Positions 9,001 through 15,000 of a DNA stretch of 64,000 nt are shown here, in pieces. Made by a program: the position numbers. This stretch comes from Longimicrobiales bacterium. Lineage in GTDB: Bacteria; Gemmatimonadota; Gemmatimonadetes; Longimicrobiales; Gaopeijiaceae. How positions within the stretch are numbered: the stretch's first letter is position 1; every line of letters begins with the position of its first letter. Location of the stretch: positions 576,001 to 640,000 of the forward strand of contig CBDDCX010000007.1 in NCBI GenBank assembly GCA_965226375.1. Reading direction: 5' to 3'.

Positions 9001-12000
9001 GGGAATTTCGGAAGAAAAGCTTCGGGCGATGAGCGCAGCGGACGTGAGGCGTCGGGCCTGGGAATCTCTGGAATTAGTGAAGCTCGACCCGGCTCAGGTA
9101 ATGGGAAAACTTCCCGCGGAGCTGTCCGGCGGGATGAAGAAGCGTGTAGGGATCGCCAGAGCCATTGCGGGCCGCCCTGAGATTCTCCTGTGGGACGAGC
9201 CGACCACCGGACTCGATCCCGTGAACACGGCGGCTATCGAGAGGCTCATCACCCGCCTCTCGAATGAACTCCACACGACGTCGCTGCTTGTCACGCACGA
9301 CATCGAGGGTGGACTCGACATGTGTGATCGCGTCGCGATGCTCGAAGGTGGACAGCTTCGCTTTTGCGGCACGCCCCAGGCGTTTCGAGCCAGCGATGAT
9401 CGGGTAGTGAAGGCGTTTAGTGATCGAGCCGCCGCGACGGCGGCTCTGGACACGTTGGTAGTCAGTTAGCATACGGGAGTATCCATTGGAGACACAGAAC
9501 CACCAAGGCCCTACGGACCAGGAACTCGAACAGGCCATCCCGCGGCAGGCAGGCCGGCGGGACGTCCGGATCGGCTTATTCGTGCTCGTGGGGTTTGCTG
9601 CAACGGTCTACTTGCTCTTTCTCCTGACGGATCCGGCGACCTTCCGAGGCAGGTACAAGGTCACGACCACCGTCGAGAACGTCATGGGGCTCCGAAAGGG
9701 AGATCCCGTCCAGATGCGGGGCGTGAACATTGGGCGAGTTCACGACTTCAACTTGGCGCGCGACGCGCAAGGCGTCGTCGTGGTTCTCGAGGTAGAGGGC
9801 CAGTGGAGCATCCCGGTGGGCTCGGTTACGGAGCTCGTCAGCCCGGGTCTCATGTCTCCCAAGACGGTCATGGTCATACCGGGACCGGGACCGGGTGCGA
9901 TCGCCGCCGGCGCTTCTCTCCCGGGAACGGCAATGAAGGGTCTCCTGGACGACACGGAGAGCTTGGGATCCAAGGGGGAGTTGTTCCTCGATCAGGTGAC
10001 GGCACTCTTGTCGGATTCGACCATCGCGGCGGTGGGAGGAAGCGCGCAGGATCTCCGGATAATCCTGAACGAACTCGCCGACGTCGTGGGATCGCAGAGT
10101 GACGAGCTCGAGAATCTCATCACCTCGTTGAACCGTGCCACCGACGGATTAGCCGATGCCACCGGGCCCGAGCTCAGAGACGACATCGCGAGTACGGTGT
10201 CGAGGGCCGATTCGCTCATGGGGAGCCTGAACGCGACCTCGGCGCGCTTCGATCGTGCTGCCGCCTCGTTGGAAACCGTGCTCGGTCGCATGGAGCGGGG
10301 TGAAGGCACGCTGGGCCAGCTCTCGGTCAACGACTCGCTCTACGTGAGCCTGAACGCGGCAGCGGCCAGTATGCGCCTTTTGGTAGACGACCTGCGAGCC
10401 AACCCGGGGCGGTACATCAACCTCTCGATCTTCTAGCCTCGGTGGGCCGCTTTGTGCGGCCCACCTGATCGCACAAGAGGCCGGACTCCAGATGGAGCCC
10501 GGGCCTCTTTCGATAGGGGGGCGGGGTCGGCTCGTCAGCGGCGGCTACCAGCCGGGGGCGAGGACGAAGCCCCAGTGCGCGCCCTTGTCGGGCCGCTGGA
10601 ACGGGTAGGCGTAGTAGGACTCCAGAATCAGGAATCCGAAAATGTTGACCCGAGCACTCACGCCGGTCGAGAACACCGGCACCCTCTTCCCGCCGGAACG
10701 CACGAAGTCGAAGTCTACCTCGGAAATGTCCGTCCAAGCGAGTCCCGCGTCCGCGAAGAACACGAGCTCCGTGGGCAGGAAGGGGAAGTTCAAGAGTCCG
10801 AACTGTGGACTACCCAACACAGGTATCCGCATCTCCATGTTGGCCACGACTATCCGATGACCGAAGAGCCGGTCGGTGCCGGCGCAGCTTCCCTCAACGG
10901 CACCTGGCTCGAACGAGCTAATGGCACACTCCTCTGGCTCGAAGCTCTCCCAAGCGTAACCGCGAATCAGGTTCTGGAAGCCCAGGAAATACGGTTGAAT
11001 GATCGCCGTATTCCGGTTCGGATCGAGGTTGTTCCCGTAGCGTCCGAAGTGCAGACCCCGAGCGGCAAACGTGAGGTTTCTGTTCGGGCTCAGGTAGCGC
11101 CGGAAGTCGGCCACCAGCGACGTGTAGTTCAACGAGCCGAGAGTCTGGCCTATCTCTAAGCGGAACCGCCCACCGTCGATGGGCGAGGTGAATCCGCTGA
11201 GTGAGTTGTCACCCACGATGGCGATGTTGGCCGAAGCCAGATTGATCGCTTCTCGTGACGGCAGAGAGATTCGCTGTGCTGCTCCCACGCCTCCGAACGT
11301 GCCCAGATAGTAACGATCCTCCTCCAGGTCGAACGACCATCGCTGGACCCCGAAGTTCCCCTCCACTCGCCGGGTCGTCGAAAACGGGTAAGCCAGGAGC
11401 ATGCTGCTCTGCGTCAAGAATATCCGATTGCGGATGAGACCCATGTATGTATTGCCATCTTCGTCCGTGCCGAACGTCTGGTATCCCTGTAGGTAAGGGA
11501 TCCGCCCCATAGAGGCTCCCCAGTTCAGACGCCTCTCTTGATTGACGTAGAAAGCCTGACCCCCAATGTCCTTGTAGGTCCCGTTGGCTTGGATGGAGAG
11601 CCCGAGGGTACGATTTCCCAGCATGTCGCTGAAGAACGCTGAGGCACCGCCGCCCACGTAGTTCCCGAACCGATCGGTGCCCACTCCCAGGGCCGGTTGT
11701 CCCACGAAGTCCAGGTGGAGCGATGAGTCGTAGTCGACGGCGTTCTCGACCAGGTAGACGCCCGTGGGCTCGAGCCCGGTCTGCTTGTCAGAGAGGTAGC
11801 TTGCAACGCGACTCGATCGCGTGGGCAGGCCGGGGGGCAACAGTCGTCCCGGTTGCCGATCGGCGGACGCGGTTACGATCTCCCCGCCGGCATCGGCTTC
11901 ACCGGCTTGCAGGCTGTACACGTGGAACTCGAATGCGTCGAAGACCGTGAAGAGAATGGACCCCGCGTTTCGAGCCACGGATAGGGTCGGTGACATGCCC

Positions 12001-15000
12001 GTGATGCCACTCACCGCTGTGGACACACGTGTGATACGGCGAATGTCGGTCGTGTCGAACTCGTATTGGTAGATATCGCTGAAACCGTCCTGATCCGACA
12101 CGAAGTAGAGGCTCCGGCCGTCCGGCGCGTACTGCGGATTCATGTGCTTCACGTTGCCGAACATATCCAGCACTTCCACGTTGCCTGAGAGGACGTCCAG
12201 GAAAGCGATCTGGGGCCGGCTGTATTGAAGCGCCTCGAAATCGGTGACGCCGCCCCGGTCCGTTACGAACGCGATCGTGGTGCCGTCGGGAGACCAGGTC
12301 GGCTGGAAATCAGCGAACTTGTCATCCGTCAGCTGGGCGACGACACCGGTCTCGAGATCCAACCTGTAGATGTCGCTCACGCCGCCGGTCAGTCCCGAGA
12401 AGGCTATGTATTGTCCGTCAGGGGACCATGTGGGGCTGGAGATGGCTCCGACTTCATCGAGGTCGATGTTTCGCTCGATCTTGCCGCTGTTGACGTCGAC
12501 GATAGCTAGTTCGTTGTCGCCTTCGGCGAACACAGTGAACACGAACTGCTGGCCATCAGGGGACCAGTCCCCGGCGGAATCGATGAAGCGCAGGGCATCG
12601 AAGTGGGGATCCGCGTTGGCGCTCACGAGTTTTCGCCGGATCTCGCCGGTACGCGCGTCGGCGACGAACAGATCGATGCCGAAAAGATCCTTCTCCGAAA
12701 GAAACGCGACCAGGCGCCCGTCGGGGCTTACCGAGGGCGAGACATTCTGTTTGCCCGCACCCGTGGACGGAGCAAGGAGCAGCGCTCCGGATTCTCCGGG
12801 TGCCTGCCGCCCACCCATGAGTGGCAGGTATTCGTTCTCCACGGCCTCCCGCCACTCCACAGACAGGCTGTCCGAGGACGTGCCCAGGACCTGTTCCAGC
12901 GCCGGCTCCCACCCGACACGCAGGGACCGCCTATACAGATCCACCACCCTCTCGTCTCCATAGGTCCCGCCGACATAGGCCCACAGCGCCTGCCCGAAGC
13001 GGTAGGGGAAGAACCGTCGCTCCGTCGTCATCTGCGAAATGGTCGGAAGGTCGTCGCGTGCGATCGCGTCTCGAAGCCACATCGCCGTGAGCGGGTCTTC
13101 ACGGCCCACCGAGAGATATTCCGCCATGCCCTCGATCAGCCAGAGGGGCAGCAGCGACAGCCCCCTTATTCCGGCCCCGGACCGACCTTGGGCCACGTTA
13201 TACTGGAACGCGTGCACCAGTTCGTGGCCAAGAACGTGATCCGTGTCCGAATATGACCCGGTCAGGGGCATGATCACACGGTTCTTGAGCGACTCTGTGA
13301 CACCACCCGTGCCTTCGCTCAAGGTCCCTCTGAGCGTGTTGGTCTGCTGGAAGTCGGGGTGGTCCGCGTACAAAATGATCGGCTTCGGCTTCTCGAACTC
13401 GTGCTGGAACATGCGAGCGAAACGCTCATACCAGCGCTCTGCCATACGCGCAGCGTCCTCGACGGCCTCTCCCTCTTCGGGGTAGAAGTGGATGTCGAAG
13501 TGCGGCGTCTTGAGGATCTTAAAATCGAAGGTTTCGTACTGGACCTTGTTCCGCCCGAAGTACTGGGCCGAAGCGGGAATTGGGAGGATCAGAAGCGCCG
13601 ACCACGCAGCCAGGGCGGTGATCAGGCGTGTTCTGGACCCTGCGGCCCTGATTCGGTCGGAAGACTTCATGTGCACCTCAATTCGTGACAGACCAACACA
13701 AGCCAGCGCTAAACGTACTGCCTGACAGTACAGTTTCTCAACTTCCGTTCCCGCGATCTCTATCCCTGCATGTCTCACTCCGGTCGCCCGAAGCGGACGC
13801 TTCACCTCGAAAGAACGCCCGAATCGGGTCGATCAGTTCCAGCTTCAGCCCTTTACTGCGCTCCCCCTCTTATGCAAGATTCCTGCCCAGGCAAGCGTAC
13901 TCCCATGCTCAACTCATACGGGACACCCATGTCATCCTTTCGTTCCAACATTCTTGTGCTTGCTGTGATCTTGGTCTCCTGCACCCCGAGTGACCGCGTC
14001 GTTGCGGGAATCGGGGAACTCGAGGTACTGGATGCGCCTCCTGCAGAGGGCAGTGTCTGGCCCGGCCTGTCCACGCAAGGAGACAGGATCGTCCTGAGCT
14101 GGCAAGAATCTGACGAAGATGACAACTGGTTCGTTAAGACCGCGACGTTGGATGATGGGGGCTGGTCGGCCGCCCACACCGTCGCCCGGTCTAGGGACGA
14201 CGCCAAATTTTTCGTGAATTGGGCTGATTTTGCCGGGGTCTGGCCTGTCGGTGATGAAGATCTGGCGGCCCATTGGTTGGTGCGTGGGCCGAACGGCGGG
14301 TACGACTACGGCATCCGTGTCGCTCGCTCCTCCGACGGGGGCGAGACCTGGTCCGAGCCCTGGACTCCGCACGAAGATGGCACTACCACCGAGCACGGAT
14401 TCGTTTCCATGTTCCCACTCGCCGACGGCGGCACGGGAATGGTCTGGCTCGATGGCCGAGAAACGGCCGGCGGGGAACACAGTGAGGGCCCGCGCGGTGC
14501 CATGACCCTCCGCTACCGAGCGCTGGCCCAGGACGGTACCACGGGACCCGAGGTCCTGGTCGACGACCAGATCTGCGACTGCTGCCAGACCGACGGAGCG
14601 CTGACGGCGTCCGGACCCATCGTTGTCTACAGAGATCGAACGGACTCCGAGATCCGGGATATCTACGTGACGCGGCTCGTGGATGATCGTTGGACGCCCG
14701 GTGCGCCCGTGCACCAAGACGGGTGGCTCATTCCGGCGTGCCCGGTGAACGGACCGGCCGTCGCCGCGCGCGGCGAGGCTGTCGCGGTCTCCTGGTTTAC
14801 CGGAGCCGACGACGAACCCAAGGTTCAAATGGCGTTTTCCGAGGACGCTGGAGCTACCTTCGGAGATCCCGTATTGATCGACGACGGGAACCCTCTGGGG
14901 CGGGTGGACGTTGTGTTACTCGGAGACGGTTCGGCGCTGGTCGCTTGGCTGGAGCGCACTCCCGATGCGGGAGAAGTGAGAGTTCGCCGGGTATTTCCCG

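Follow-up and report, generated by a model that had tools for sequence, protein, structure and literature searches.

The gene at positions 10545..13670 encodes a protein in which a gluzincin-type metallopeptidase head, a TolB-like propeller and an Omp85 barrel follow one another, and it belongs, as an unexceptional member, to the WD40-like Omp85 proteins, a family already known though uncharacterised. The survey's finding that drew attention to this gene had described the same zincin, propeller and barrel architecture, which is borne out by Pfam, structural models and motifs alike, and had read it as a new branch of the Omp85 superfamily; the observation holds, and the claim to novelty fails. 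The most plausible reading is still that of an envelope protease at the outer membrane, with a predicted activity. In its specific form, to which we assign a probability of roughly 0.55, the protein would be a periplasm-facing metallopeptidase of the WD40-like Omp85 type, tethered to the outer membrane, that would trim or degrade unfolded envelope proteins.

The window analysed here is a stretch of 64,000 nucleotides that corresponds to C7:576001-640000 of the assembly. On its minus strand, an open reading frame that starts with the ATG at 13670 and ends at 10545 yields 1041 amino acids, and a database search returns thousands of full-length homologues (Table 1). This start is favoured over an in-frame GTG upstream, at 13805, because of the Shine-Dalgarno-like motif that precedes it, and it places the QYFG of the mature protein at residue 36, in agreement with relatives, in which the head sets in at about residues 20-50. 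Read by eye, the preceding residues form a putative signal peptide with a basic n-region, then a hydrophobic core and a likely cleavage site between ASA and QY. Conservation was assessed in an alignment of 65 sequences that represent at least three phyla and three paralogue lineages; in the mature N-terminus QYFGRNKVQY, residues F38, G39 and V43 are each kept in 64 of these sequences.

Table 1. Features of the gene, with positions counted along the window and conservation given for the 65-sequence alignment.
Feature	Positions	Strand	Basis or remark
Whole gene	10545..13670	(-)	1041 codons plus stop codon at 10545-10547
GAGG, Shine-Dalgarno-like	13676..13679	(-)	5 nt 5' of the ATG at 13670
Putative signal peptide, residues 1-35	13566..13670	(-)	Cut after ASA; read from the sequence by eye
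Gluzincin head, residues 36-300	12771..13565	(-)	AF2 model, structure and profile matches
HELVH zinc motif, residues 149-153	13212..13226	(-)	H149, E150 and H153 65/65
E180, predicted third zinc ligand, in WLIEGMAEY	13131..13133	(-)	65/65
PD40/TolB-type beta-propeller, residues 301-600	11871..12770	(-)	Five Pfam PD40 matches
Linker, residues 601-651	11718..11870	(-)	Without POTRA fold
Omp85 16-strand barrel, residues 652-1041	10548..11717	(-)	Last residue W
LIRGY, residues 901-905, L6 (V/I)RG(Y/F) motif	10956..10970	(-)	R903 63/65, G904 65/65
FFADAG, residues 971-976, FxDxG motif	10743..10760	(-)	F972 and D974 65/65, G976 61/65

The AF2 model of the head (pLDDT 85.2, pTM 0.84) is matched best by the M9 collagenase 7wss (Z 16.8, rmsd 4.0 A over 229 residues), with further matches to M30 lugdulysin (Z 16.1), M1 PSA (Z 14.2) and the F3 entry 1z1w, which is related to 1z5h (Z 13.2). 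Foldseek searches with the head also return M1 and M9 matches, and its sequence profile matches 7wss at E 1.5e-4. Common to the head and to the M9, M30 and M1 catalytic domains are the thermolysin-like gluzincin fold, HExxH and a downstream Glu: HELVH aligns to the HExxH of 7wss and of aminopeptidase A 4kx7, and E180 to the Glu in WWSEGVAEY (7wss) and WLNEGFA (4kx7), a residue that in M9 and M1 enzymes is a zinc ligand. The head differs from M1 enzymes in having neither the GxMEN motif nor an M1 N- or C-terminal domain, and the protein differs from M9 collagenases in having no activator and no collagen-binding domain. Matches to Pfam Peptidase_M9 fall short of the cut-off: among 26 relatives scanned whole, 8 score 16-20 bits where 26 are required, and 24 of 43 heads scanned give a match at E<=0.01. 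The survey's statement that Pfam sees nothing on residues 1-300 is slightly too strong: the BSP match at 142-204 in the whole protein is indeed under its cut-off (E 3.1e-4), but the head scanned alone reaches it, with 24.3 bits against 23.8. Nor are all of the residues that had been listed as invariant quite so. H149, E150, H153, W177, E180 and G181 are present in 65/65 sequences, and nearly as constant are F155 and Q156 (64/65 each), A183 (63/65) and Y185 (62/65), whereas L151 is found in 52/65 and G148 is not invariant.

The propeller is recognised by Pfam as five PD40 repeats (E 3.5e-32), and TolB chains in the PDB are matched with E 7e-21; it differs from TolB in that the N-terminal domain of the latter is missing here, and TIGR02800 gives a partial match, whose 133 bits fall short of the 343 required. 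A DPPIV_N match in Pfam and the precomputed annotation Tricorn_N (PF26549) are points of likeness to propeller-capped peptidases. In S9 prolyl oligopeptidase, DPP-IV and tricorn the catalytic domain lies over the propeller face, as is predicted here, and the propeller has a gating role; those enzymes are soluble serine peptidases, whereas the present protein would be a gluzincin tethered to a barrel. Complex modelling gave the head-propeller pair a packing score of 0.87, against 0.00 for the best of three controls. Of 157 solved complexes 116 attained this mark, as did 2 of 215 mismatched pairs, counts that apply only roughly here because alignments of our own were supplied, and consecutive domains of one polypeptide, as modelled here, pass more easily than true partners do. 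The runs share at least 94% of contacts, with a partner pLDDT of at least 86. Contacts on the propeller group into roughly 13 clusters, which follow one another at intervals of about 20-25 residues over the whole 300 residues, which fits a head that lies over one face and touches each blade. Those on the head flank the cleft on either side (67-74, 84-85 and 101-109; 158-170 and 250-265) and include the near-invariant and otherwise unexplained R79, Q109, M197, W198 and R200. Taken by themselves, the contact lists support a predicted arrangement in which the head spans one propeller face with its cleft turned towards it.

As the survey had proposed, no POTRA domain is detectable: no Pfam POTRA family matches the whole protein, none of the 65 linker-plus-barrel pieces matches one, and in the AF2 model the linker is a low-confidence stretch (pLDDT 41-60) with a single short helix. 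The alignment segment 590-680 spans 91 residues in this protein and 66 to 224 in its relatives. The barrel is recognised as Omp85 at residues 759-1029 (E 1.8e-11, 44.6 bits against a cut-off of 24), and its AF2 model (pLDDT 86.8) superposes with residues 58-444 on residues 423-808 of E. coli BamA (Z 23.2, rmsd 3.8 A over 309 residues); the barrel profile matches BamA 4k3b at E 1.9e-6. With BamA, TamA and Sam50 it shares the 16-strand fold (Z 20-23), the L6 VRGY motif, the FxDxG motif and a conserved E-x-R strand. LIRGY aligns to VRGY of N. gonorrhoeae BamA and FFADAG to LFADAG of BamA, the signature residues G904, E946, R948, F972 and D974 are each kept in 65/65 sequences, and the last residue is aromatic (W, F or Y) in every one. 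The difference from these proteins lies in the missing POTRA domains, and canonical POTRA-bearing Omp85 genes are encoded separately in the genome, as reading frames of 835 and 820 aa with three POTRA matches each and of 765 aa with one.

A POTRA-less WD40-like (WD40-Omp85) group is one of the ten Omp85 subfamilies of Heinz & Lithgow 2014 (PMC4104836), whose Table S2 holds 62 proteins, none with a POTRA, and whose Table S3 names for 17 members, in the part that precedes the propeller, a 'best aminopeptidase hit', the M1 aminopeptidase 1z5h; the main text treats the propeller alone, and 'Gemmatimon' occurs nowhere in the searched files of that paper. Compared with its tables and text, the present architecture, an Omp85 barrel with an N-terminal TolB-like PD40 propeller and an aminopeptidase-like head, shows no difference, so that neither a new branch nor a new class of Omp85 is called for. 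The description is repeated in two 2024 papers, Hanson 2024 calls the subfamily uncharacterised, and our literature search found no experiment on any family member.

How such a protein might work can be outlined. After Sec export and cleavage behind ASA, the last ~390 residues would form a BamA-type 16-strand barrel in the outer membrane, inserted by the genome's canonical POTRA-bearing BamA. On the periplasmic side, the two-domain module would be suspended from strand 1 by the flexible linker of ~50 residues. There the gluzincin domain would lie across one face of the PD40 propeller, with H149, H153 and E180 as zinc ligands and E150 as general base. By analogy with prolyl-oligopeptidase-type enzymes, the zinc site may be reachable by extended chains or peptides only, and folded proteins would be excluded because the propeller caps the catalytic domain. 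At the inner face of the outer membrane, the presumed, gated peptidase would most likely trim or degrade envelope proteins that are unfolded or have not been assembled, a role comparable in function to that of BepA at BAM. BepA is an M48 peptidase plus a TPR domain, soluble and recruited to BamA, whereas here the peptidase is fused to the barrel; a Pfam scan finds no M48 match in the present protein. The likeness is a functional analogy only: according to PMC13478230, PMC13655028 and PMC8423444, BepA is an HExxH protease of the periplasm which carries a protein-binding domain and acts, at an Omp85 protein, on outer-membrane proteins that have stalled. The periplasmic topology is suggested by other Omp85 proteins, among them PlpD, whose enzyme domain is likewise N-terminal to the barrel and, according to Hanson et al. 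2024 (PMC11116518), exclusively periplasmic; PlpD is a homodimeric patatin lipase with one POTRA, whereas the present protein combines a zincin with a propeller and has none. Among the points against the envelope-protease reading are that the barrel retains all Omp85 signature motifs, for which a simple anchor has no obvious use, and that a BepA-like role could already be filled by another product of the genome, an M48 peptidase of 491 aa.

Across 80 loci no conserved neighbour gene indicates a substrate, and synteny is lineage-specific. Some of these loci would suit a peptidase whose targets are stem peptides or envelope proteins linked to peptidoglycan and which coordinates the outer membrane with wall growth, a rather unlikely alternative that is reminiscent of what TolB does in the Tol-Pal system and accords with the TolB type of the propeller: in Rhodothermales-type loci the gene is divergent beside PBP2 (9/80) and RodA (8/80), and in one Pedobacter genome it lies 79 bp after a class A PBP. 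The PBP neighbourhood, however, is seen in two lineages only, whereas the window's gene has its closest relatives beside mlaD (12/80 loci), and the propeller face that a partner would need may be taken by the head; moreover, the matched gluzincin folds M9, M30 and M1 are not known to be those of peptidoglycan peptidases.

It is unlikely that the protein is an assembly factor and not a protease, a BamA-BamB-like fusion, as the main text of PMC4104836 suggests, in which propeller and head serve as binding platforms and client outer-membrane proteins are inserted or held by the barrel. The constancy of all Omp85 barrel signature residues speaks for such a factor, but the zinc-binding and catalytic residues are without exception as constant, in all three paralogue lineages and across at least three phyla, which argues for catalysis; a POTRA to receive substrates is missing, and the propeller belongs to the TolB/PD40 type, unlike BamB, which a 2024 paper gives as an eight-bladed propeller of a different kind. 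Also unlikely is a surface protease whose barrel exports and displays head and propeller for the digestion of external proteins as nutrition. The family is frequent in polymer-degrading soil and marine phyla and secreted collagenases are among the head's nearest structural relatives, but no POTRA is present, the L6 lid motif, the plug of BamA-type barrels, is retained, and for the crossing a module of 565 residues, which by prediction packs tightly, would need to be in an unfolded state. Type Vd-like export of the head, which the survey had entertained, is unlikely because its precedent has itself been overturned, the model PlpD holding its patatin domain in the periplasm (PMC11116518).

The family's phylum-wide presence is confirmed, with matches at E<=1e-20 in 121 of 121 sampled Gemmatimonadota genomes (119/119 when the unpublished G057 and G097 are left aside), but it is no speciality of that phylum: in the genomes sampled, the head was also found in 77 of 121 from Bacteroidota and in 58 of 101 from Acidobacteriota, and in a tree the Gemmatimonadota copies are intermingled with those of other phyla. 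Two additional copies accompany the gene in its own genome. One is the paralogue that had been reported at C5:268305-271400, which is indeed 59% identical over its full length, and the other, on C8, is a distant 1011-aa reading frame with 24% identity in which the HExxH and EG motifs are retained.

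The window protein is an ordinary member of an Omp85 subfamily that has been catalogued, is spread over several phyla and has so far gone unstudied. Its succession of head, propeller and Omp85 barrel is real, as borne out by Pfam, by models of the head and the barrel, and by motifs present in 65/65 full-length family sequences, and the survey's finding had read this arrangement as a new Omp85 class. The subfamily is, however, already to be found in section 10 and Tables S2 and S3 of PMC4104836. That section treats the WD40-Omp85 cluster as one of ten subfamilies and compares it to a BamA-BamB fusion (Heinz and Lithgow, 2014). 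Table S2 holds 62 WD40-like proteins, PF07244 being in none of them, and the column 'best aminopeptidase hit' of Table S3 gives, in the part available, 1z5h at 99+ for 17 members. As described there, WD40-like Omp85 proteins place a propeller with TolB as its best match N-terminal to the barrel, and the window protein has both features; upstream of the propeller their M1-like match is 1z5h, and the window head matches 1z1w (Z 13.2). From this identical architecture, and from homologues in similar organisms, we infer kinship with the listed UniProt members. Of two more recent papers, each available in part, a 2024 Leptospira paper states that certain subfamilies bear 'WD40 and peptidase domains', and the other calls the WD40-like subfamily poorly characterised (Hanson et al., 2024; PMC11116518). 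Our literature search found no functional study of its members. The window gene is therefore no new kind of thing, and its value is that of another well-annotated member.

The start at ATG 13670, which lies within a longer open frame, has GAGG 5 nt ahead of it and puts the conserved mature end QYFGRNKVQY at residue 36, behind a signal peptide ending in ASA that was judged by eye from the sequence; in relatives the head likewise begins some 20-50 residues from the protein start. This N-terminal stretch hardly varies from phylum to phylum (F38, G39 and V43 each in 64/65 sequences, N41 in 63/65), and despite such conservation it reaches a pLDDT of only 38 in the isolated head model. It may dock elsewhere, with the propeller, the barrel and a partner as candidate sites. 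TolB possesses an N-terminal box, which docking of this kind would echo.

Features of the window gene, its distant paralogue and related loci (positions count along the window unless a genome or locus is named)
Feature	Position	Strand	Residues	Basis or remark
Open frame	13805-10545	(-)		sequence
Gene from ATG start 13670	10545-13670	(-)	1041-residue product	sequence
Mature N-terminus QYFGRNKVQY	13536-13565	(-)	36-45	conservation
LIRGY, L6 (V/I)RG(Y/F) motif (presumed)			901-905	profile alignment with BamA 4k3b
Long L6 loop with C915 (53/65) and C929 (51/65)	10884-10928	(-)	915-929	conservation
FFADAG, FxDxG motif (presumed)			971-976	profile alignment with BamA 4k3b
mlaE-mlaF-mlaD operon, phospholipid transport	7736-10436	(+)		convergent on the gene
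Divergent neighbour with sub-threshold BNR_2 (sialidase-like repeat) match	13770-15164	(+)	464 aa	Pfam
Distant paralogue (C8 copy)	G000:C8:168355-171849 (L003:256-3288)		1011-aa ORF	24% identity
PBP2/RodA-type related loci	L075, L077, L081, L085, L091, L092, L097, L102, L104

The head is a gluzincin with an intact predicted metal site, a conclusion that follows from its structural matches, from the alignment of its HExxH and Glu residues, and from residues conserved throughout the family. An AlphaFold2 model based on 43 aligned Gemmatimonadota heads (pLDDT 85.2, pTM 0.84) retrieved M1 aminopeptidases and M9 collagenase peptidase domains from the PDB with Foldseek (E from 1.6e-4, TM 0.5-0.6), with tricorn factor F3 (1z1w) at rank 19. 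In an all-against-representatives structural search the same model matched Grimontia collagenase 7wss (M9; Z 16.8, rmsd 4.0 A over 229 aligned residues), lugdulysin (M30; Z 16.1, 6.9 A over 237), puromycin-sensitive aminopeptidase (M1; Z 14.2, 6.0 A over 232) and 1z1w (M1; Z 13.2, 6.6 A over 234). A head profile run against the sequences of PDB entries picked out 7wss (E 1.5e-4) and, less strongly, aminopeptidase A (E 5.5e-3), and in both alignments HExxH and the Glu of EG(M/V/F)A fall in register. H149, E150, H153, W177, E180 and G181 are each present in 65/65 sequences of a set drawn from Gemmatimonadota, Rhodothermales-type Bacteroidota, Balneolales, Pedobacter and Acidobacteriota. Alignment and head model thus give the HExxH motif, the Glu ligand on the subsequent helix and the thermolysin-like fold of clan MA(E). 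Pfam reports a sub-threshold match to the zincin family BSP at 142-204 of the whole protein, and when the head is scanned alone this match, at 24.3 bits, clears the cut-off of 23.8; Peptidase_MA_2, at 20.3 bits, stays under its cut-off in the window protein, and one relative passes (34.3 bits vs 32.4).

M9 and M30 endopeptidases are the closest to the head. Membership of M9 itself is rejected, since Pfam PF01752 finds no match at E<=0.1 in the window protein; among 26 relatives scanned whole, 8 match it with 16-20 bits, the cut-off being 26. The M1 family is marked by the exopeptidase motif GxMEN and by flanking M1 domains. The head is not an M1 member because it lacks GxMEN, the nearest stretch being a conserved GGVTE at 122-126, and Pfam finds neither the N- nor the C-terminal M1 domain in the window protein.

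For the propeller, Pfam reports five PD40 repeats (E 3.5e-32) together with DPPIV_N. Precomputed annotations list PF26549, which the Atlas names Tricorn_N, and PF26550. When the whole protein was compared with PDB sequences it gave matches to the propeller only (TolB, S9), and domain profiles were needed to go further. The NCBIfam model TIGR02800 scores 133.1 bits, on the propeller part only, against a cut-off of 343.15, so the window protein is not a TolB equivalog. Complex prediction, with a 65-row alignment each for head and propeller, supports binding between the two at a score of 0.87, the best of 3 controls reaching 0.00. This mark is attained by 116/157 solved complexes and by 2/215 mismatched pairs, counts that apply here only approximately, since the alignments were our own, and consecutive domains of one chain, as head and propeller are, pass it more readily than true partners do. 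Contacts agree between runs to at least 94%, with a partner pLDDT of at least 86, and, to our knowledge, no solved zincin-PD40 complex was there for the predictor to memorise. On the propeller side the contacts repeat about every 20-25 residues over all 300 residues; on the head side they flank the cleft on both sides and include the near-invariant R79, Q109, M197, W198 and R200. The contact lists suggest that the head would cover one face of the propeller, and this predicted packing is a concrete hypothesis open to test.

The barrel is recognised by PF01103 (Omp85) at 44.6 bits in the whole protein (759-1029) and at 48.1 bits in the barrel piece, the cut-off being 24. A model built from residues 596-1041 and 64 relatives (pLDDT 86.8, pTM 0.78) superposes through its residues 58-444 on residues 423-808 of E. 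coli BamA with Z 23.2 (309 residues at rmsd 3.8 A), TamA and Sam50 ranking after BamA, and thus predicts a 16-strand barrel of the BamA kind. A barrel profile matches BamA of N. gonorrhoeae (4k3b) at E 1.9e-6; in the alignment LIRGY lies opposite VRGY, and FFADAG opposite LFADAG, segments which we take to be the L6 and FxDxG motifs. R903 is kept in 63/65 sequences, G904, E946, R948, F972 and D974 in 65/65, and all 65 sequences end in W, F or Y. The two cysteines of the long L6 loop may form a disulfide inside it.

Between propeller and barrel no POTRA domain was detected. Pfam finds POTRA families neither in the window protein nor in any of the 65 linker-plus-barrel pieces, 29 of which match Omp85 at E<=0.01; residues 596-650 have a pLDDT of 41-60 and one short helix, and nearly all structural alignments of the linker-plus-barrel model begin at the barrel. 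The absence of POTRA claimed by the survey's finding therefore holds, and its worry over one hidden in 600-660 is answered, as far as models can tell, by the low-confidence linker and by the counts of 0/65 for POTRA against 29/65 for Omp85. The alignment window 590-680 spans 66 to 224 residues in relatives. It comprises 123-224 residues, against 91 in the window protein, in a second Gemmatimonadota paralogue lineage (loci L038-L045, L048 and L049); Pfam detects no POTRA in that lineage, and a very degenerate one is conceivable in these long-linker paralogues. Separate POTRA-bearing Omp85 ORFs occur elsewhere in the genome. The window protein accordingly falls outside the classical Omp85 definition on POTRA, and outside type Vd with PlpD, having neither a patatin domain nor POTRA.

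It is clear that this is a large family, present in every sampled Gemmatimonadota genome and in more than half of those sampled from Bacteroidota and Acidobacteriota. Matches at E<=1e-20 occur in 121/121 Gemmatimonadota genomes (119/119 without the unpublished G057 and G097), which upholds the view of a core gene of the phylum. The suggestion that it is specific to that phylum does not survive, as the head profile matches 77/121 Bacteroidota and 58/101 Acidobacteriota genomes (57/100 without the unpublished G269) and the phyla mix in the tree. A scan for the head motif outside the phylum confirmed at least 568 relatives among at least 597 stretches, those listed including Longimonas, Salinivenus, Gracilimonas, Pedobacter, Thermoanaerobaculia, Aminicenantes and Vicinamibacterales; in 12 such loci, PD40 and a zincin match were found in 12/12 and Pfam Omp85 (E<=0.001) in 5/12. 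Among 1.84 billion representatives of 50% identity clusters, matches number 1383 at E<=1e-30, rising to 4942 at E<=1e-10. Many Gemmatimonadota matches span head and propeller only (residues ~15-588), as barrel-less paralogues would. All 12 of those examined have ORFs of 982-1291 aa, and 8 of them match Pfam Omp85 (E<=0.01), so their barrels are divergent rather than missing. Two Bacteroidota genomes (G128:C1:2964986-2965777 and G133:C1:2788590-2789381) carry the head inside 1530-aa ORFs, which may hold an extra domain.

Within the source genome the full-length paralogue C5 lies exactly where the survey had placed it, at 59% identity, and the distant C8 copy keeps HELVH and EGMATY intact, with PD40 matched just twice and Omp85 weakly (E 3.5e-4). 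The contig offset of 544000 used earlier needs correction, the window being at C7:576001-640000. In a FastTree phylogeny of the 65 sequences, arbitrarily rooted on the long branch of the C8 copy, the C5 copy groups as sister to the window gene with support 100, and a Rhodothermales clade is sister to that of the window's family (support 98). The Gemmatimonadota sequences do not form one clade, and well-supported branches force at least 3 changes.

The most likely mechanism is that of a putative zinc peptidase facing the periplasm, tethered by the barrel and capped by the propeller; in PlpD too the enzyme domain is described as periplasmic, in the part of the paper available (Hanson et al., 2024; PMC11116518). 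On a bolder reading, which we consider improbable, the barrel would be more than an anchor, the residues that mark a working Omp85 barrel being all invariant: a BamA-like lateral gate would capture misfolded or stalled beta-barrel proteins in the outer membrane and pass them to the zinc peptidase of the same protein, capped by its propeller on the periplasmic side. If true, the protein would dispose of outer-membrane proteins entirely by itself, with no need of BAM-BepA, and such a machine would be found throughout Gemmatimonadota and commonly in Bacteroidota and Acidobacteriota. That the window protein replaces BepA is not supported, since the genome encodes an M48 peptidase of 491 aa, a possible BepA in which no TPR family matches at E<=0.01. 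Once established, the role of a protease fused to a BamA-type barrel would extend the range of uses to which the Omp85 scaffold is known to be put, much as PlpD has done, and could also shed light on outer-membrane surveillance in non-proteobacterial diderms.

Among 80 related loci no partner gene is conserved across lineages; mlaD, the BNR gene and PBP2 with RodA are each limited to one lineage. The homologue is followed by mlaD in 12/80 loci and preceded by the BNR gene in 14/80, all of them close relatives, and it is divergently adjoined by PBP2 in 9/80 and by RodA in 8/80, all Rhodothermales-type. A class A PBP lies 79 bp upstream of the homologue at a Pedobacter locus (L127:1391-3841), and these PBP2, RodA and class A PBP neighbours may point to a link between the homologue and growth of the cell wall. 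Further neighbours of the window gene, at 6377-7681 (-) and 15165-17825 (+), comprise an M20/M28 peptidase, an AhpC/TSA-type thiol peroxidase or redoxin, a D-serine dehydratase-like enzyme and a PfkB kinase, and look ordinary.
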